Of a DNA stretch of 64,000 bases, positions 6,301 through 44,843 are shown piece by piece. The notes below the pieces were generated by a model that was not told the origin of the DNA, did no database searches, and saw only the letters and a list, made by a program, of their open reading frames with translations. The DNA lies in IMG/VR virus record IMGVR_UViG_3300020049_016248, one strand, 5' to 3'. Position 1 is the first letter of the stretch. Every line of letters begins with the position of its first letter. The stretch is from a virus (lineage: Duplodnaviria; Heunggongvirae; Uroviricota; Caudoviricetes). The position numbers and the translations under genes were made by a program.

Positions 6301-8415
6301 ATGTCAATAAAAGCAATACAACATAAGTTCACAGGGGATACTACGTTGGTAAGTGCATATGATTCCACTAAAACAAATTTAGGGGCACTTATAAAACAAT
6401 ATACGGGTGCTACAAGTTTAGATAAATTTGCAGGTCCATGTAAAGTTGGAATAGGTAGACCTATGGAGCAATCAACAGCAATTCCTGGGGTATACCCTTA
6501 TGTTTATAGATTTTCAAATACAATAGATCATGTTTTTTTAGCTGATTTAGCGACAGCTGCTGCAACTAGAAGAATTATAATGTATGAATATAATAGAGAA
6601 ACCTCACAGTTTAATTGGAAAGGATTTATTACATTAACATATCCTACAGCTACAACTCATACTATAAAAGGTATGCGTATGGTAAGAGAGTTATATACTA
6701 CAGGGACAGTTGCAGTATCAGGTACAGCTGTAACAGGAACTAGTACAACATGGACAACTGATAGAATGTCAGTTGGTTGTAGAATAGGTTTTGGATCAAC
6801 TGATCCAACACAAATAACAACATGGTATACTATATCAGCAGTTGGGTCTAATACTTCTATAACATTAACAGCATCTGCTGGTACTATATCAGCTGGAACT
6901 GCTTATGTAATTGAAGATTTAATGTGTATAACAACAACAGTAAATGCAACTGCTACTAACGGTGGGTTGTATGTTGCAAAAGGTTTAAATGTTGATATTT
7001 TTACTTCTGTTGGAACTACTATACCTGCAGCTACTACAGTTGACAATATTAGAGCTGTATATTGGTTAGCTGATGCATCAACTGTAACAAATACAATTGC
7101 ATGCGGAAGTGCTATTAATGATAAAGTTTCTTGGATAGATGCAAACGTTTATGTTTTAGATGCAACAGGTCCTAAGGTATATAAATATAATTACAGAAAA
7201 GCGTTAACACTTGCTTCTGGTAAAGATACAACAACTTTAGTTTTAACTACTGGTACTCAAGCAGTAACAGGTACTATATCACAAACTAACAATGGACGCA
7301 TAGGAACTTTAAATCACGGTCCAGGTGCAGGTGTTCCTTGTTTATATTTTGTAACAACTACTAGATGTTATAGAGCTATATTAACAAATATAACAGCAGC
7401 TTCAACAACATGGCAAGCTGATACAATGGTAGAAATTCCCCCTGGTAGTGTTAATACATATGCTGCTGGTGGTGCATTTGCGTGTGTTGAAATAGCAGGT
7501 GATATAGATAGATTAGTTATAACATCAACAGGTGCTGCTGGTATTAGAAGTTATGTTACTCAATATAATACAACATCTAATCCATTTGATCATATATTTT
7601 TATCAGATGATAAACAATTAGATCAGTCATTAGCAGATTCAGGGGGCACTCCTCACCCTGCAATATTAGCATCAATTATGACACCTTGGTCAGAACAAGG
7701 AGTGTTATATTTAGCTAGAAGTGGTACAACAGCAATATTGAATCAAATTTATACTATTCCAATTGGTGCTCATAGAGCTTATGCTAATGCTAATGAACAA
7801 TTATTAATTACACCTAGTTTTGATATATCTGACGCTAATAAATTATATAATTTATATGTGAATGATATACATGCAGTAGGTGATAGTACATTTTCAGTTC
7901 AAACTGAACCATATGATATTTATTATAGAACAAGTGGAATAACTGATAATAGTGGAACTTGGAATTTATTAGATGAAAGTGGGGATTTAAGTGGTGTAAC
8001 AGGTACAAATATACAATTTAGTTTTATGTTTAAAATATTAGGAATAACATGTATACCGTCTAGAATATTATCTTTAACATTAACATATGAAGATACTACA
8101 AATGATAGTCATTATACACCATCTGTAGCAAATTCATCTATAGCAAGTAGAATCTTTGCATACAGACAAGATGTAGCTTGGGGAAGTAATATACCAACAA
8201 TGAGAATACAATTATACAATGCAGTAACTAATGTATTATTAATAGATGATGACACTTCAGCTCAAGCATATGGAACATTTGAATACTCATCAGATAATGG
8301 TGGGACATGGAATGCATGGTTGAATACTGCAGATGTTGTAGGAAACTACATTAGATACACTGCAGCATCATTACCAGATGGGACAAGAGTGAAAGCAATA
8401 ATATCTCAAGCTTAA
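6301..8415 (+). CDS. virion structural protein
   Basis: 704 aa, T/A/G-rich, GTVAVSGTAVTGTSTTW-type fibre motif, inside the tail cluster. Confidence 0.55.
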   Translation: MSIKAIQHKFTGDTTLVSAYDSTKTNLGALIKQYTGATSLDKFAGPCKVGIGRPMEQSTAIPGVYPYVYRFSNTIDHVFLADLATAAATRRIIMYEYNRETSQFNWKGFITLTYPTATTHTIKGMRMVRELYTTGTVAVSGTAVTGTSTTWTTDRMSVGCRIGFGSTDPTQITTWYTISAVGSNTSITLTASAGTISAGTAYVIEDLMCITTTVNATATNGGLYVAKGLNVDIFTSVGTTIPAATTVDNIRAVYWLADASTVTNTIACGSAINDKVSWIDANVYVLDATGPKVYKYNYRKALTLASGKDTTTLVLTTGTQAVTGTISQTNNGRIGTLNHGPGAGVPCLYFVTTTRCYRAILTNITAASTTWQADTMVEIPPGSVNTYAAGGAFACVEIAGDIDRLVITSTGAAGIRSYVTQYNTTSNPFDHIFLSDDKQLDQSLADSGGTPHPAILASIMTPWSEQGVLYLARSGTTAILNQIYTIPIGAHRAYANANEQLLITPSFDISDANKLYNLYVNDIHAVGDSTFSVQTEPYDIYYRTSGITDNSGTWNLLDESGDLSGVTGTNIQFSFMFKILGITCIPSRILSLTLTYEDTTNDSHYTPSVANSSIASRIFAYRQDVAWGSNIPTMRIQLYNAVTNVLLIDDDTSAQAYGTFEYSSDNGGTWNAWLNTADVVGNYIRYTAASLPDGTRVKAIISQA

Positions 8416-8428
8416 TAAATAAAGAATA

Positions 8429-8590
8429 ATGATAGCTGATATTGTATATAGTACAAATGAATTTATTTTAGAAGTACCAAATGGAACTCCAGGGGGTGTT
8501 ATAAAATCGTATTCATTAGATGGTCTTAATTATGATTTTACTGAATCAATAGGTGGAGGTGGTGAAACAAGCAGTGTATTCGTAACATAG
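8429..8590 (+). CDS. 53-aa small protein missing from the ORF track
   Basis: MIADIVYSTNEF...GGGGETSSVFVT*; A-rich leader; fills the gap between two genes. Confidence 0.6.
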   Translation: MIADIVYSTNEFILEVPNGTPGGVIKSYSLDGLNYDFTESIGGGGETSSVFVT

Positions 8591-8604: not shown

Positions 8605-9141
8605 ATGGGAAATCAAAAAGCTAAGTTTAAAATAAATAAATCTTGGGATAGTCCTGAGTTATTAGATTATGATATTTTAGGTTATCATAAGAAAAGAACT
8701 ATTATAAAAGGTGAATTAGTTTCTATTGAATATTATAAAAACTATGACGGAGTTGATTATTCAGACTTAGTAGTTAAAGAAGAAAGAACTTACACTAGAA
8801 ATAATTTAGGTCTAGTACAGTCTAGACTATTAACAATAACTTGGTATTTAGAAGATAATACTGCAGGTTATATTAAGTCATGTAAAAAGTTTTATTCTTC
8901 ATCAGAATCTATAGATGAAGGTATTACAAGAAGAAATAATATAATTAACGATGCAAAAGTTTATGTTTTATCTGCTATAGGTCAAAGTTATGGTTTTGAT
9001 TTCATGACAAGTTTAAAATCACAAATTGATTTATATACACAAGGATATAAACAACCTTTGTATGATGCTATATTAAGCAGTTCAAAAGCATATCTAACAG
9101 AACAAATTAAAAATAATTTAATAGATATTGTCACATTCTAG
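8605..9141 (+). CDS. hypothetical protein
   Basis: 178-aa ORF in the structural operon. Confidence 0.6.
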   Translation: MGNQKAKFKINKSWDSPELLDYDILGYHKKRTIIKGELVSIEYYKNYDGVDYSDLVVKEERTYTRNNLGLVQSRLLTITWYLEDNTAGYIKSCKKFYSSSESIDEGITRRNNIINDAKVYVLSAIGQSYGFDFMTSLKSQIDLYTQGYKQPLYDAILSSSKAYLTEQIKNNLIDIVTF

Positions 9142-9186
9142 CACCTTAAGTGATATTTACGTTTACGAATATTTAACTTATCCTTA

Positions 9187-9762
9187 ATGAAAGCAGTAGA
9201 AAAATATAACAAATTAAGACAAGAACTTAAAACAGGTGATATTGTCTTATTTCATAGAAAATCATTATTAGCAAACATTATACAATGGGCTGATAACTCT
9301 TACTATAATCATGCATCTATTGTATATTGGTTAGGGGATAGATTATTTACTGTAGATGCATGGGATAATGGAACAGAAATTGTCCCACTTTCAAGAAGAA
9401 TAAAACAATATGATGATTTTTGTATTGTGAGAAAAAACAACATTACACCTCAAGAATTACGTTTTGCTTGTTCTAATTTAATTTCTCGTATAGAAAAAGA
9501 TGAACCTTATGGTTGGTTAGAATTAGTTAGAAGACTAATTTGGTTAAAAGTTTTAAACAAAAACAACAAATTTTCTAACATAGAAAACTGGATTGCAAAA
9601 AAAAGACTACCAGTATGTAGTGATGTAGCAAGAGAATTCGGGGTAGATCTTGGAATCGTTTCATATAAAAGTTTAATATTACCTACACCTGAAGATTTAA
9701 AAAGACATGCACAGGAATCAGAAACTACAGTTTTATGGCATGATCATAAAGATAAACTATAA
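9187..9762 (+). CDS. permuted papain-like amidase (YaeF/YiiX-type NlpC/P60)
   Basis: LKTGDIVLF, YNHASIV (His) preceding PVCSDV (Cys), the circularly permuted order. Confidence 0.8.
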   Translation: MKAVEKYNKLRQELKTGDIVLFHRKSLLANIIQWADNSYYNHASIVYWLGDRLFTVDAWDNGTEIVPLSRRIKQYDDFCIVRKNNITPQELRFACSNLISRIEKDEPYGWLELVRRLIWLKVLNKNNKFSNIENWIAKKRLPVCSDVAREFGVDLGIVSYKSLILPTPEDLKRHAQESETTVLWHDHKDKL

Positions 9763-36090: not shown

Positions 36091-36858
36091 ATGAGATTTA
36101 ACGAAACAAAACTTACCGACCATTATAAAGAAAGAGTTAGAGATAGAATTGATAGTTCTACATTAACTCTACCTTTTCAATTACCTCAAGTTCAAAATTT
36201 TTCTGAAGGTGAATTACATAATCTTATTAAAGTTGAATTAGATAAGAAAATTAAAGAAAAAGCTTTTCAAGCTGGTTCACAAGATTATACAAAAGATGAT
36301 TTTGTATGTTTAGTTATAGCTGAAATTAGTATTGTTTATAAAGGTAAAAGTTATTTACCTGTTATATCAAATGATGGTCCTAAAGGTCATGTTTACTACG
36401 CCCCTATTTTAAATGATGCTTTGATTACTTTAGTACTTGCAGAGTCAGCTGACCCAAGTGTTTTATTATCTCGTTGTGTACAACATCTACAAAGAAGCAA
36501 ACAAGTGCAAGTTACACCAGAAGATTTTACTTTGTATAGATTACCTGGATATAAAATAGTTTTTGATTTAGATAGGTTCATTCAAAGTTTAGAAACACCT
36601 AAAGAGGAAAAGAAAATAACAGCTGAAGAATTGCCTTATAAGATTAGAACTGATTATAGAAAAGATGCTGATTTTGAACATATGACCTATGGTAAAGGTA
36701 AGATTGTAAACACTTCAAATGGTGTAAAAGGTGTAGGTGATGCTCACGGTAAATTAGACTGGGTTGATGTTGACTTTAAAAAACCTTTTGTAAGTCAAGG
36801 TAAATTAACTACTGTGAGAAGAATACCAGGGATAATTACTAAAATAGGATTGAACTAA
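36091..36858 (+). CDS. late-type hypothetical protein, possible head cargo
   Basis: Isolated + gene preceded by TATTTATA (36077-36084); starts MRFNE like MKFNE of 40214. Confidence 0.55.
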   Translation: MRFNETKLTDHYKERVRDRIDSSTLTLPFQLPQVQNFSEGELHNLIKVELDKKIKEKAFQAGSQDYTKDDFVCLVIAEISIVYKGKSYLPVISNDGPKGHVYYAPILNDALITLVLAESADPSVLLSRCVQHLQRSKQVQVTPEDFTLYRLPGYKIVFDLDRFIQSLETPKEEKKITAEELPYKIRTDYRKDADFEHMTYGKGKIVNTSNGVKGVGDAHGKLDWVDVDFKKPFVSQGKLTTVRRIPGIITKIGLN

Positions 36859-37266
36859 AGGTTTTCTATAATACTTATAAAACATAGGTTTCATATTAAT
36901 TTTCTCTTTCAACCTTTCTCTCGATAACTCTAATTCAAAAGAGTTAAAAGTCCAATTATTATAATATGAAGTTTTCGATAAAGTTTCAATTTTAGTTAAA
37001 TAGGATTCAACTATTTTTTCATCAACTTTAAATTTACGTTCCTTCGCTTCCGCTAACAGTTGTAAGTAACGATAATGCAACCATTGCAACTTATTGTAGA
37101 AAAATATAACATGCCCTGTTCCTAATTTATAAGATGTAGGAAAGTTAATTGTTTTGTTTTTTGATTTTTTTAATATTAAAGAAAAAATACGAGGTAATTC
37201 TCGTATTTCTGCTTTTAAATGTTGGTCAGTTAATTCTTTTGGGACAACTAAGTTAATTCTTGTCAT
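36805..37266 (-). CDS. denV: pyrimidine-dimer DNA glycosylase (T4 endonuclease V family)
   Basis: MTRINLV, HL.AE.RELPRIF, YKLGTGHV.FFYNKL. Confidence 0.92.
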   Translation of the reverse strand: MTRINLVVPKELTDQHLKAEIRELPRIFSLILKKSKNKTINFPTSYKLGTGHVIFFYNKLQWLHYRYLQLLAEAKERKFKVDEKIVESYLTKIETLSKTSYYNNWTFNSFELELSRERLKEKINMKPMFYKYYRKPLVQSYFSNYPWYSSHSS

Positions 37267-37778
37267 GCTTTAACAATATGTGCTAAAACTGTCTTAACTC
37301 TTTCTTCTATAGAACCTGTTACAGTTATAACTGATAAATTATTATCTTTAATATACTTTTGAATTGCAAGGTCAATGTTAATTCTATCTTGTTCGTCTGT
37401 AAAACGAACACCATCATTAACTATTGGAAATTCAATAGGTATATAAAAAATATGGTCAATATTATTTTTATGCTTATCGAAGCAGTCTTGTATGTGTTGT
37501 GTCTTCAACCCTTTAAGGTAATATTCTGTATAAACAATAGCATCAATAGGTGAACGGGTTGATATTAAGTTCTTATAACTAATATAATTTTCATATGCCC
37601 AACATGTTAATTCATTCAACACTATTTGCTCTTGAACTGACGACATAGAAGATTTTTCTTTTGCTATTTTAACTGGTCTAGAAAACCCATCAGTTGTAAA
37701 AGTAAAGGGTAAAGTTTTTCTAATTTCTTCTAATAAAGTAGATTTACCTGTAGAATGTGCACCTAATAATATATTCAT
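37263..37778 (-). CDS. P-loop nucleotide kinase (AAA_28/NadR-like)
   Basis: GAHSTGKST Walker A; RSPIDA..Y; DGVR. Confidence 0.75.
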   Translation of the reverse strand: MNILLGAHSTGKSTLLEEIRKTLPFTFTTDGFSRPVKIAKEKSSMSSVQEQIVLNELTCWAYENYISYKNLISTRSPIDAIVYTEYYLKGLKTQHIQDCFDKHKNNIDHIFYIPIEFPIVNDGVRFTDEQDRINIDLAIQKYIKDNNLSVITVTGSIEERVKTVLAHIVKA

Positions 37779-37803: not shown

Positions 37804-37835
37804 AAAAAAAAAGTGGTTAAGAATCCACTTTTTTT
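37804..37835 (-). terminator. intrinsic terminator directly after the GNAT gene
   Basis: Minus strand aaaaaaagtgg-attcttaa-ccactttttttt. Confidence 0.7.
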
Positions 37836-38200
37836 ATTAATTTATATATTTGCTTGTCGTTTACGAAATCTTCATAACCTGTTTCTTTAAAACCTTGTTT
37901 TTCATAAAACAATTTTACTTCACTTTCACACCAACAATCTATAAAACTACAACCTAAAAGTTTAGCAAGTCTCTCAACTTCTTGTGTTAATTGTTTACCA
38001 TAACCTTTACCATGTAAAGTAGGACAAACTTCTATTTTTGAAATATGAAAAACTTTATTGTTTTGCTCTAACCTCCAAGCTAGATAACCTATAATTTCTC
38101 CATCAATTTCAAATTGAAGTGCTGTCTTGTCAGTAAAATAAACCTTTAACCAGTCAAATTTACTGTTTGATGTAAAACTATTTATAGGTTTAGTAATCAT
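37817..38200 (-). CDS. GNAT-family N-acetyltransferase
   Basis: IEV.PTLHGKGYGKQL (motif A), FYEKQGF; ATG overlaps the queF stop. Confidence 0.88.
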   Translation of the reverse strand: MITKPINSFTSNSKFDWLKVYFTDKTALQFEIDGEIIGYLAWRLEQNNKVFHISKIEVCPTLHGKGYGKQLTQEVERLAKLLGCSFIDCWCESEVKLFYEKQGFKETGYEDFVNDKQIYKLIKKVDS

Positions 38201-39117
38201 TATTGACCTTGTTGTTTAACTGTATAGTGATATACATTTTTTAACACTGTTGGAATCATATCATATGATGTTGCTCTAACTGGGTTAATGTCCCATGAAC
38301 CTCTACGAGAATATAAAAGCATTACACAACAATCTTCTACTTCTGGATGACTTTTTAAAGCAGTAAATAATTTTTCTGCACAAAATTCATGGAACTCATT
38401 TACTTCTCTTAAAGAGATAACTTCTTTAAGTAAACTTAAAAGATCTAACTTAGCATTCTTAAGTTTAATTTTTAAATAAAACGCTCCTGTATCTTTTTGT
38501 TTAGTATGACGACAACGACTACGTAAAACATTCGTGTAAACAGAATATGTATTATCTTGTTTATCTTCAATAATTTTTAAATGTTTTTCTTTTGCACTGT
38601 AATCTGTAAAAGATTCTTTTTCTAAAAGTTCTAAGTCGATTAAACTGTATAAATCTTCATATCCTCTAGCAGGATTAGCTGCTGTCTCATGTTTGTCCAT
38701 TCCTTCTTTGAAGAATTTTACATCAACACTAACTTGTAAAAGTTCAGATAAGTCTTTTTTAATTTGATTTGTATAATTATCAACAGCTGTATTAAGTGTA
38801 GCTCCCATTTTACACATATCAAATGAATTTGTGTAAAGTTTAATTGATTTAGATTCTACCATAAACTCTGAAGATGCATCATAACTAATTTTTAATGTAC
38901 CTGCAACAGGTAAACCATTATCAAGTAAAAATGTAGCCTCATGACAATGCCAAGTATCAACCCCTACAAATTCTTTACCAGTGATTCCCCAATCTTTACG
39001 AGCTAATTCTCTTGGCATAGCTACTAATAAACTAGAGTCAAACTTGTCTGTATAAACAGCATAACTACCACTTTGACCTAAATGCTTTGATGCAATATCA
39101 TTAATTGTTGTTTCCAT
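38200..39117 (-). CDS. queF: NADPH-dependent preQ0 reductase, long (E. coli-type) QueF
   Basis: ESKSIKLY QueF motif; catalytic Cys/Asp in SRCRHTKQKDTG; EFHE; YSRRGSWDINP. Confidence 0.93.
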   Translation of the reverse strand: METTINDIASKHLGQSGSYAVYTDKFDSSLLVAMPRELARKDWGITGKEFVGVDTWHCHEATFLLDNGLPVAGTLKISYDASSEFMVESKSIKLYTNSFDMCKMGATLNTAVDNYTNQIKKDLSELLQVSVDVKFFKEGMDKHETAANPARGYEDLYSLIDLELLEKESFTDYSAKEKHLKIIEDKQDNTYSVYTNVLRSRCRHTKQKDTGAFYLKIKLKNAKLDLLSLLKEVISLREVNEFHEFCAEKLFTALKSHPEVEDCCVMLLYSRRGSWDINPVRATSYDMIPTVLKNVYHYTVKQQGQ

Positions 39118-39126
39118 TATAATTTT

Positions 39127-39969
39127 TTATTTATTGAATAAATTTGTTCTAAATTGTCTTACGTTATATGCAATAGTACTTATCTGTGAGTGTTGCAAAA
39201 CTATATCTAAATTTTCAGCTAACTTTTCTTTCGGCTTATCAACTGTTAAGTCTAAATTTATATTAGTTTCAAACTTAATACCGTTCCAACCGTAAACAAT
39301 AGGAGCTGAAGTGTCAACAGATTTAATATACTCTCTTAATCTTTGAGGGTATAAGGTAAATTCTTTTGGTGTAGCACAACCTAATAAATGTAAAGGTTTC
39401 TTCATTTCTACTTTTGAAATCAAATCAGAAATTACTGCTACTCTATGTAGTTTATAATCTATATTATCGTAAATTTTATAAGTTGTATAGTCATATTCTT
39501 CTTTAGTAAATAAATCAAAAGGTACTGCAATAACTTCTATTTGATCTACTGTGCAATAAAAATTATACAACTCTACAAACTCTTCAATTGATTTCCCTTG
39601 CAACACTCCTATAAACTTTGGTGTTGATTTACCTCCGAATTTTGCTATATATGCTAAAGCTCTCGCCTGTGTTAAAGCTTTATTATGTAAAGCATCAGGT
39701 AAAATTAAATGAGAAGGTTTATATTGTTCCCCTATTTCAAATAAAATATTAGGGTCATAAGAATCACCTAGTTCAAATGCTGAATTGTCTAAGATAGAAT
39801 ATTCATATTCTTTTATAATATCTTTATAAAAAGTTGCATAAGTTGGGTCAAAATGTTCACCTCCAAAGTGTAAAAGATGACATAATGCGTACGGATAATC
39901 ATTAATTAAATGATGTTGTGCAAATAATACTTTAGGTATTTCGTGAGAAATTAAAGGAATGTAGTTCAT
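39127..39969 (-). CDS. TGT-fold, DpdA-like guanine transglycosylase
   Basis: ILDNSAFELG, ILPD, VLQG, LHLLG, SVDTS occur in TGT/DpdA order; ATG 39969 preferred over TTG 40017. Confidence 0.7.
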   Translation of the reverse strand: MNYIPLISHEIPKVLFAQHHLINDYPYALCHLLHFGGEHFDPTYATFYKDIIKEYEYSILDNSAFELGDSYDPNILFEIGEQYKPSHLILPDALHNKALTQARALAYIAKFGGKSTPKFIGVLQGKSIEEFVELYNFYCTVDQIEVIAVPFDLFTKEEYDYTTYKIYDNIDYKLHRVAVISDLISKVEMKKPLHLLGCATPKEFTLYPQRLREYIKSVDTSAPIVYGWNGIKFETNINLDLTVDKPKEKLAENLDIVLQHSQISTIAYNVRQFRTNLFNK

Positions 39970-39982
39970 ATTATTATATTTT

Positions 39983-40168
39983 TTAGTTTTTCTTTTTATT
40001 AAAGATCCATTTATCAATATACCAAAATATCATAGCTCCAGTTAAACAGTATAAAAACAAACTCCATAATAAGTTTAAGTGTAAATAATCTTGTAAAAAC
40101 CATAAACAAGGAATACCATAGATATTTCCTAGTTGCCAACGTAAATAGTAAATCAAATATTATTTCAT
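39983..40168 (-). CDS. small two-TM membrane protein with TAA at codon 3, or TTG start at 40156
   Basis: MK*YLIYYLRWQLGNIYGIPCLWFLQDYLHLNLLWSLFLYCLTGAMIFWYIDKWIFNKKKN*; different frame from track ORF 40014..40214. Confidence 0.6.
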
Positions 40169-42315: not shown

Positions 42316-42792
42316 TTACTCTTCATAAATAGAAGAATTTGTAGTATTTTCGAAACACTCTACTTTTACAACTTTACAACGACCACCGTCTGTTAAAGCT
42401 AATCTTTCGTTAAACTTATCGAAAACTAATTTAGCAACAGACTCTGCTCCCATTTTATCCATAACAATTAACTTACAAATTCCCATTTGTGCTAATTGTT
42501 GAAAGATATCTAAATAAGGGTCATCTTTTTCAATAAGAGTAGTGTGGTCAAACTGATCATCTAACCATTCTCTCAAACCATTACCATGAGGGGGTTTCTT
42601 AAATGAACCGTAATCTACAATCCAATTCATATCATCTAATTGTTTGTCTACATCTGGTTCATTGGATGCAAACCAAACTTTAATTTCAAATGCATAACCA
42701 TGCAAAAGTTGACAGTGACTATGTTGAGCTTTCCATTGTCTCAATGCTACACTAAAATTTGTAAATGTTTTTGCTGAAAGATATCTTGCCAT
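42316..42792 (-). CDS. queD: 6-carboxytetrahydropterin synthase (QueD/PTPS family)
   Basis: HCQLLHGY, W.VDYG, FDHT.L, GAES.A, FEN..NSSIY. Confidence 0.92.
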   Translation of the reverse strand: MARYLSAKTFTNFSVALRQWKAQHSHCQLLHGYAFEIKVWFASNEPDVDKQLDDMNWIVDYGSFKKPPHGNGLREWLDDQFDHTTLIEKDDPYLDIFQQLAQMGICKLIVMDKMGAESVAKLVFDKFNERLALTDGGRCKVVKVECFENTTNSSIYEE

Positions 42793-43922: not shown

Positions 43923-44843
43923 TTAAACTCCTCGTTTAGCGTGACCGAACATTAAACAATGCAATCTCGGTGCAAACACCCAACCTCTTTTAATTGCTTC
44001 TTCAGCTACCCAACCTCCTCTTTCCATTAATTCTTGAGGAGTTATACCTTCAGGCATTAAATATATATCAGTTGGACGTACTCCTTTTAAATGTTTAATG
44101 AAGTCGTTTTCAATTTCATCTAAATCCTCTACTTTTGATACAACAAATTTTAATTGAAAACTTTTATGTACTTTTCTCTTATTGTAATTTATTTCAAAAT
44201 AAGTAGATGTTGAATCTCCATTGAAACATGAATCAATATACTTTTGAATTGCGGGGATATCTCTTCTAATCTCATCATGTTTCTTCTCCCATTTTTCATT
44301 ATATTTTAATTTAGGGTCGATTTTATGAGCTAACTCAACAGCTTCTTTAGTAGGGTTAGAAGTTTTTAACTTAGGAGACATAGAAATCAAATTAGTGTAC
44401 TTAGCAATATCATCTGTATAGATTGTTGCATTCGTTTCTATTGTTGTATGAAACCCTTCTTGTTGTAGTCTCTGTAACAACTCAGCTAAAACTTCTTTTT
44501 GTAAAGTTGGTTCACCACCTGATATTACTATATGATTAATATTACCTCTGTTTTGATTTACAACTGAAACAATATCTTCAATTTCAGTTAAGTTAGTTTC
44601 AGCATAATGACTTGAATAAGCTGTGTCACAAGGTGTAGCTCCACCTTTATTATCTCTGAATACACATCGCAAATTACACCCAGAGGTACGTATAAACAAG
44701 ACAGGAACACCTATGAGTGCTCCTTCCCCTTGAAAAGTCCCTGCTACTGAATATTCTGTGTCTAGTTTTTCCGATAAACTATTACCGTCTTTATCTTTAG
44801 TAATAGGAAAGATTCCATTGTTAACTAAGTTAATTTTACTCAT
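43923..44843 (-). CDS. queE: 7-carboxy-7-deazaguanine synthase (radical SAM)
   Basis: FQGEG..IGVP..FIR.SGCNLRC...PCDT, SGGEP, TIETN, MSPKL, PRLH. Confidence 0.92.
   Translation of the reverse strand: MSKINLVNNGIFPITKDKDGNSLSEKLDTEYSVAGTFQGEGALIGVPVLFIRTSGCNLRCVFRDNKGGATPCDTAYSSHYAETNLTEIEDIVSVVNQNRGNINHIVISGGEPTLQKEVLAELLQRLQQEGFHTTIETNATIYTDDIAKYTNLISMSPKLKTSNPTKEAVELAHKIDPKLKYNEKWEKKHDEIRRDIPAIQKYIDSCFNGDSTSTYFEINYNKRKVHKSFQLKFVVSKVEDLDEIENDFIKHLKGVRPTDIYLMPEGITPQELMERGGWVAEEAIKRGWVFAPRLHCLMFGHAKRGV

Follow-up and report, generated by a model that had tools for sequence, protein, structure and literature searches.

A GNAT acyltransferase gene in the DpdN slot of a phage DpdA3 module and the predicted DNA base 7-(acetamidomethyl)-7-deazaguanine

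Results and Discussion

The deazaguanine locus

The virus record IMGVR_UViG_3300020049_016248 (Caudoviricetes) was analysed over a stretch of 64 kb, called the window below, which carries a set of genes predicted to exchange guanine in DNA for a tailored 7-deazaguanine. With ~29% G+C and with T4-like baseplate, ligase and dUTPase genes, the window is a piece of a large tailed phage, and a near-identity DNA search against isolated phages gave no match. Genes for a predicted DNA guanine transglycosylase of the DpdA3 family, for the preQ0 reductase QueF and for a small acyltransferase of the GNAT superfamily are packed tightly on its minus strand, with QueD and QueE encoded upstream on the same strand. 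A system of this kind is known from Flavobacterium phage immuto_2-6A, whose DNA is fully modified with the formylated deoxynucleoside of preQ1 (formyl-dPreQ1, fdPreQ1) and whose tailoring protein is named DpdN (PMC10516641). In the window the GNAT gene takes the place of the DpdN gene, so that an acetylated relative of this base is probably formed. The features of the locus are as follows.

37263–37778, minus strand: AAA_28 (NadR-like) P-loop kinase-like protein, fourth member of the module (Pfam AAA_28, E 2.5e-14)
37806–37835, minus strand: weak hairpin and T-run across the GNAT stop codon (pattern scan and direct reading)
37817–38200, minus strand: GNAT acyltransferase of 127 aa occupying the DpdN slot, proposed to N-acetylate preQ1 or dPreQ1 (Pfam, gene junction, synteny, ratio of nonsynonymous to synonymous substitution rates (dN/dS))
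38200–39117, minus strand: QueF, bimodular NADPH-dependent preQ0 reductase, 305 aa (Pfam QueF_N and QueF, alignment with 3BP1)
39127–39969, minus strand: predicted DpdA3-family DNA guanine transglycosylase, 280 aa (tblastn, PHROG 19058, AlphaFold2 (AF2) fold, invariant motifs)
42316–42792, minus strand: QueD, PTPS family, CxxLHGY type (Pfam PTPS, E 6.5e-15; aligned with QueD of immuto_2-6A and of the related locus L003)
43923–44843, minus strand: QueE, radical SAM 7-carboxy-7-deazaguanine synthase (Pfam Radical_SAM and Fer4_12)

The first-pass annotation of this DNA had described the transglycosylase, QueF and GNAT genes as a minus-strand unit in which the GNAT start overlaps the queF stop, with queD and queE 2–5 kb away, and we could confirm the three open reading frames and the positions of queD and queE. 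The junction between queF and the GNAT gene reads CAA TAA TG, so that the queF stop codon and the ATG share one base (TAATG). The same annotation had placed a terminator directly behind the GNAT gene. A hairpin followed by a T-run is indeed present at 37835–37806, but it is weak (a 4-bp G/C core plus A:T pairs) and spans the stop codon, and the AAA_28 gene begins only 38 nt beyond it. As this gene belongs to the module, the module does not end at the hairpin, and a unit ending at the GNAT gene had been drawn one gene too short.

Transglycosylase, QueF, QueD and QueE

Pfam gave no match for the 280-aa transglycosylase. Using tblastn, the DpdA3 proteins of immuto_2-6A (E 1e-25, 32% identity) and of the Campylobacter phages CP220, CP21 and their relatives (E about 1e-22, 34% identity) were found, and it is the proteins of immuto_2-6A and of the CP220-type phages to which the name DpdA3 was given (PMC10516641). 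The protein also matches PHROG 19058. Its AF2 model, built from a 32-sequence alignment, reached a predicted local distance difference test score (pLDDT) of 87, and Foldseek matched it to 1IQ8, 2ASH, 2POT and 7UI4 with a probability of 1.0 and TMq values of 0.44–0.65, the best PDB matches being archaeosine tRNA-guanine transglycosylase (TGT), bacterial TGT and the bacterial DNA preQ0 insertase DpdA (7UI4). The TGT fold claimed from the first reading is therefore confirmed. A profile search of the PDB also had DpdA 7UI4 as its top match, over the region HLLG...DTSxP, which is a weak one (E 0.29).

The motifs LDNSxFELG, HLLG and DTSxP (D219-x-S221-x-P223) are invariant across 32 DpdA3 sequences, and their Asp residues are presumably catalytic. 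The earlier suggestion that DNSAFE marks a divergent, new subfamily had to be given up, since this stretch is part of the family-invariant LDNSxFELG and the subfamily already bears the name DpdA3 (PMC10516641). By its sequence the transglycosylase belongs to the DpdA3 subfamily and is predicted to exchange guanine in DNA; according to the authors of that study, a test of DpdA3 was not possible in E. coli (PMC10516641). The start codon was set to the ATG after homologues and gene calls on identical contigs, while the open frame extends to a TTG at 40017. In L082, the locus of a 245-kb relative, the DpdA3 gene (6540–8498) is interrupted by an intein with a LAGLIDADG endonuclease domain, which lies exactly inside LDNS|xFELG, with Cys instead of Ala as the next residue; this insertion point fits a functionally critical site. 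Tyr71 of DpdA3 was considered as a marker of a GNAT partner and rejected, as it also occurs in five DpdN-linked sequences.

QueF exceeded the Pfam cut-offs for both halves (QueF_N 82 bits, QueF 40 bits), and with 170.6 bits it stayed under the cut-off of 293 of the NCBIfam equivalog TIGR03138; it belongs to a divergent phage clade. The QueF motif, which we take to be E(S/L)K(S/A)hK(L/Y)(Y/F/W) together with the thioimide-forming Cys, an Asp and a His, could be located by alignment with Vibrio cholerae QueF 3BP1 (E 7e-29), where ESKSxKLY, the Cys (RSRC), the Asp (QKD) and the His (EFHE) are all kept. An intact NADPH motif and catalytic residues had also been read from the letters at first pass, in agreement with this alignment. 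In L082 (9132–10001) QueF has been exchanged for a 289-aa xenologue showing 32% identity to QueF of the window and 39% to that of immuto_2-6A, and an additional 218-aa gene lies between DpdA3 and this replacement. The flanking DpdA3, GNAT and AAA_28 proteins of L082 are 79–86% identical to those of the window (GNAT 83%), and its GNAT gene still overlaps the stop codon of the replacement queF.

QueD of the window shows C-x-x-L-H-G-Y in place of the canonical C-x3-H-G-H. A defective enzyme was considered and rejected, as immuto_2-6A, the DNA of which is fully modified, has the same motif; it is also present in the type A relatives described below. In L082 (2548–3860) and L083 (138–1006) the CxxLHGY-type QueD is N-terminally truncated (102–106 aa), and a canonical C-x3-H-G-H QueD of 184–185 aa is encoded just upstream of it. 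QueE is 30–35% identical to QueE of immuto_2-6A and of the GNAT-bearing locus L094.

The DpdN slot

A scan of IMG/VR with QueF of the window returned 80 loci with QueF proteins of 56–69% identity, in which the module genes were mapped by tblastn. DpdN was found in 76 of them, and the remaining four are cut off ahead of the slot. Wherever the slot is covered, it holds a gene of ~185–194 aa of the Formyl_trans_N family, 39–48% identical to DpdN of immuto_2-6A. Two gene orders could be distinguished, QueC-DpdA3-QueF-DpdN-AAA_28-FolE (type A) and DpdA3-DpdN-AAA_28-QueF (type B), the latter being also that of immuto_2-6A itself (DpdA3-DpdN-kinase-QueF). With the order DpdA3-QueF-GNAT-AAA_28 in the window, the GNAT stands exactly in the type A DpdN slot. 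The GNAT was found in none of these loci, and no locus, the GNAT loci included, has both a GNAT and DpdN. In the window no DpdN homologue was found by tblastn over the 64 kb, and Pfam gave no Formyl_trans_N in its open reading frames of at least 100 aa.

The fold class of the tailoring gene in the window is that of GNAT and not the PurN-like Formyl_trans_N, and the GNAT is a positional, and probably a functional, analogue of DpdN and not a member of its family. The simplest reading of two unrelated acyltransferases which alternate in one slot, never together, is that both act on the aminomethyl nitrogen made by QueF. In the QueF tree the clade of the window is sister to the DpdN-bearing loci L001 and L002 (support 95/85) and nested among other DpdN-bearers. 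L002, the closest DpdN-bearing relative, has a GIY-YIG homing-endonuclease-like gene between QueF and DpdN (8798–9691), its AAA_28 gene is inverted and its DpdA3 gene is not adjacent.

The DpdN-type module is common among uncultured phages. IMG/VR contains at least 137 loci with the QueF type of the window, and DpdN forms at least 841 clusters at 90% identity, so that metagenomes contain far more of the fdPreQ1 module than one would expect from the four DpdN proteins of the 2023 study (PMC10516641). The GNAT variant, with about ten clusters, is rare.

The AAA_28 gene is adjacent in nearly all relatives that cover this part of the module, in both gene orders. Its counterpart in immuto_2-6A (L081:13472–13996) is likewise adjacent and annotated as 'thymidylate kinase', and homologues also occur in the Campylobacter DpdA3 phages. 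A kinase in the DpdA3 module is never mentioned (0 occurrences) in the 2023 paper (PMC10516641).

The GNAT protein and its family

Pfam assigned the 127-aa protein to Acetyltransf_1 with 48.7 bits (cut-off 20.7), and Acetyltransf_7 and Acetyltransf_10 also exceeded their cut-offs. The AF2 model, made from six sequences, is of low confidence (pLDDT 58), and that of the ESM Atlas has a pLDDT of 0.78. At the acyl-CoA pyrophosphate loop (Q/R-x-x-G-x-G/A) the protein reads H-G-K-G-Y-G, of which only G68 is invariant in the family, the loop being variable in distant members. Across relatives of 31–83% identity 18 positions are invariant, and dN/dS among close homologues is 0.16–0.27, which indicates purifying selection. 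A decaying or inactive remnant would have the poor AF2 score in its favour and nothing more specific; the dN/dS values, the invariant positions, the ESM Atlas model and an identical protein in five samples all speak against it, and we regard this explanation as hardly credible.

Homologues of 68–97% identity, found on contigs of several studies, always show DpdA3-QueF-GNAT-AAA_28 with the overlapping start, and the identical protein is present in JGI 3300010357, 3300020037, 3300020050 and 3300005664 and in GCA_029562415.1. They represent one phage lineage, and we therefore give them little independent weight. A pattern scan of IMG/VR for the GNAT gave no matches, and tblastn against isolated phages only weak and irrelevant ones. 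When 1.84 billion representatives were searched exhaustively with HMMER, only five GNAT clusters fell below the threshold of E 1e-10, the weaker matches being generic GNATs. All clusters with readable context are located in DpdA3/AAA_28 modules, with QueF alongside wherever the contig reaches. The co-occurrence of this GNAT clade with queF and dpdA across phages, which the first-pass annotation had named as a check of its idea, is thereby strongly borne out.

The distant members are the most informative regarding gene order. P0011 (38% identical) shows QueE and QueD, then a gene of 277 aa followed by QueF-GNAT-AAA_28, with QueC nearby; this QueC contains an intein and has 677 aa. P0013, at locus L094 (35%), shows PolB-QueD-QueE-DpdA3-GNAT-AAA_28-QueF-FolE-QueC. 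Here the order is that of type B, the GNAT again taking the DpdN slot, and the DpdA3 shares 51% identity with that of immuto_2-6A but only 32% with that of the window. In P0012 (39%) the GNAT follows a DpdA3 that is 59% identical to that of immuto_2-6A, and in P0010 (47%) the GNAT is followed by the AAA_28 gene. In the DpdA3 tree the two architectures separate into two deep clades with a support of 100 and GNAT-bearers are present in both, so that at least three changes of state are needed.

Using hhalign, the GNAT family was compared with gp48 of phage PaMx11, a GNAT that converts 5-aminomethyl-dU in oligonucleotides to its acetyl form (PMC8989533). The match (probability 79.6%, E 1.5e-5) covers only 73 columns of the GNAT core, and the likeness of the sequences is one at superfamily level only.

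Proposed pathway

Taking together the observed gene identities, folds, catalytic motifs and synteny, the mutual exclusion with DpdN and the purifying selection, the following pathway can be proposed. PreQ0 would be made by QueD and QueE together with a QueC and a FolE that are encoded in another part of the genome or supplied by the host, and QueF would reduce it to preQ1 with its free aminomethyl group. DpdA3 would exchange guanine in the phage DNA for the deazaguanine base, and the GNAT in the place of DpdN would acylate the aminomethyl nitrogen of preQ1, most probably with acetyl-CoA as the donor. The product would be 7-(acetamidomethyl)-7-deazaguanine in virion DNA, with a computed neutral mass of 337.14 for the nucleoside ([M+H]+ 338.15, +42 compared to dPreQ1), and it presumably shields the DNA from restriction. 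The corresponding computed values are 296.1 for dPreQ1 and 324.1 for fdPreQ1, the latter in agreement with PMC10516641, and the acetylated base freed of its deoxyribose would appear at 222.10.

We consider it likely that the window encodes such a DpdA3-type guanine replacement, in which the GNAT acylates the preQ1 aminomethyl group in lieu of DpdN and 7-(acetamidomethyl)-7-deazaguanine is the predicted base. As a prediction from sequence, N-acetylation of preQ1 or dPreQ1 by the GNAT is well supported, while we infer which atom is acylated and from which donor, when this happens (on the free base or in DNA) and how much of the guanine is replaced. That the new base, like those of other DpdA3 systems, replaces all or most guanines in a phage genome of ~245 kb, and that the DpdN/GNAT slot is an exchangeable 'acyl cassette' diversifying one base, we favour by a narrower measure. 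The acidic DpdA3 proteins, the conserved P-loop kinase and the 100% replacement in DpdA3 genomes make one ask if part of the reaction sequence takes place at the nucleotide level. In a further-reaching version, tailoring, perhaps even base exchange, might act on soluble precursors and not on finished DNA. For DpdN, too, it was left open whether acylation precedes or follows insertion (PMC10516641).

Several points weigh against the proposed acetylation. It is deduced from the genes, and the function of DpdN, to which the GNAT is compared, is itself a prediction (PMC10516641). Neither QueC nor FolE was found in the 64-kb window, and DpdN may be encoded elsewhere in the genome, outside the 64 kb searched; the distant GNAT loci do carry QueC and FolE close by. 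No DpdA3 residues were found that covary with the tailoring enzyme (GNAT or DpdN). Moreover, all Foldseek and Atlas matches of the GNAT are generic GNATs that carry no substrate signal, and the junction between QueF and AAA_28 takes unrelated inserts, as the GIY-YIG gene of L002 shows.

Since the junction tolerates other inserts, some weight is left to the explanation that the GNAT is a passenger, for example an acetyltransferase of proteins or small molecules that helps in taking over the host or in countering its defences, which settled at this recombination-prone site after loss of DpdN and left the DNA with plain dPreQ1. Small GNATs are common accessory genes of phages, and both the homing endonuclease at the same junction and the generic structural matches would suit such a gene. 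A passenger would hardly be expected in the pattern seen, with relatives of only 35–47% identity that occupy this slot under the other gene order and in the other deep DpdA3 clade, with every family member of readable context in such a module, never alongside DpdN, and with a translational coupling that survives the replacement of QueF in L082. We therefore judge a passenger to be quite improbable.

It could also be that the GNAT belongs to the deazaguanine module and performs another act there, using a different acyl-CoA donor or acceptor atom, or a nucleoside or nucleotide intermediate tied to the AAA_28 kinase. The association with the module would be the same as for the proposed acetylation, the acyl-donor specificity is not readable from the sequence, and the role of the conserved AAA_28 gene is left unexplained. 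The GNAT family has isoelectric points of 4.8–6.8, neutral to acidic, more in keeping with a small soluble substrate than with DNA, and those of DpdA3 are 5.6–5.8; these values favour soluble substrates only weakly and we do not rely on them. On the other hand, that the GNAT and an N-formyltransferase replace each other without ever co-occurring suggests that they share the acceptor nitrogen, and a minimal GNAT of 127 aa with a G-x-G loop is typical of acetyl-CoA users, so that another act seems unlikely without being far-fetched, and N-acetylation of preQ1 or dPreQ1 stays the preferred function of the GNAT.

Comparison with known systems

The module resembles the DpdN system of immuto_2-6A in having DpdA3 (32%), QueF, QueD, QueE, an AAA_28-like kinase and a tailoring acyltransferase beside the kinase. 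There, guanine is fully replaced by a preQ1-derived N-acyl base, and in the window an N-acyl base is predicted from the genes. The two differ in the tailoring enzyme, which is a PurN-fold formyltransferase with a folate donor in immuto_2-6A and an unrelated GNAT fold, presumably with an acyl-CoA donor, in the window, and in the base, formyl-dPreQ1 there and predicted acetyl-dPreQ1 here. The gene order is also different, and QueC and FolE are not adjacent in the window.

Regarding the chemistry, PaMx11 gp48 is analogous. It is likewise a small GNAT of a phage, and its acceptor is a primary aminomethyl group at a major-groove position of a DNA base, which it acetylates (Nucleic Acids Res. (NAR) 2021, PMC8989533), a reaction that for the window is proposed only. 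In contrast, the acceptor of gp48 is a pyrimidine C5 side chain in the 5-hydroxymethyldeoxyuridine (5-hmdU) pathway, and gp48 was shown to act on DNA. The same aminomethyl nitrogen of preQ1 or dPreQ1 is tailored by the methyltransferase DpdM of Cellulophaga phage phiSM and Vibrio phage VH7D (PMC10516641), but DpdM has a DUF3109 metal-binding fold, works with DpdA1 or DpdA2 at low levels of modification and adds a methyl instead of an acyl group.

A GNAT linked to a TGT/DpdA-like gene has been described in silico for BREX-related capture (BRC) modules, for which a DNA mark combining an acyl group and 7-deazaguanine was proposed (NAR 2026, PMC12839542). These are cellular defence operons and not phage DpdA3 modules, and the BRC study does not mention QueF, does not name the product and does not describe a relationship to the DpdN slot (PMC12839542). 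The Campylobacter CP220-type phages with their genomes containing the deoxynucleoside of 7-amido-7-deazaguanine (dADG) share the DpdA3 family (34%) and have AAA_28 homologues, but their pathway stops before preQ0, at 7-carboxy-7-deazaguanine (CDG), and their base is ADG (PMC10516641), which would imply that both QueF and an acyltransferase are absent. In the literature that we searched there is no description of acetylated preQ1 in DNA or of a GNAT in phage deazaguanine clusters. What is known is thus the DpdA3/QueF tailoring system, and what appears to be new from the sequences is a non-homologous acyltransferase within it together with a predicted new base.

Eight 7-deazaguanine derivatives are known in viral DNA, and the tailored forms methyl-preQ1 and formyl-preQ1 were found only in 2023 (PMC10516641). 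If our proposal is true, the acetyl form would be an additional natural DNA base, and with this enzyme a GNAT would take part in purine DNA hypermodification for the first time. One fixed position in the pathway would then be filled by exchange between unrelated acyltransferases, which would illustrate clearly how phages come to vary the DNA chemistry that protects them from restriction. Many restriction enzymes fail on such DNA, sequencing chemistries may read it poorly, and the enzymes could serve for making site-modified DNA.

Neighbouring gene

One further gene follows the module.

36805–37266: denV-type pyrimidine-dimer DNA glycosylase, directly after the AAA_28 gene, with a 4-base overlap

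The order of AAA_28 gene and denV-type glycosylase gene is also present in the close relatives L082, L083 and L085.

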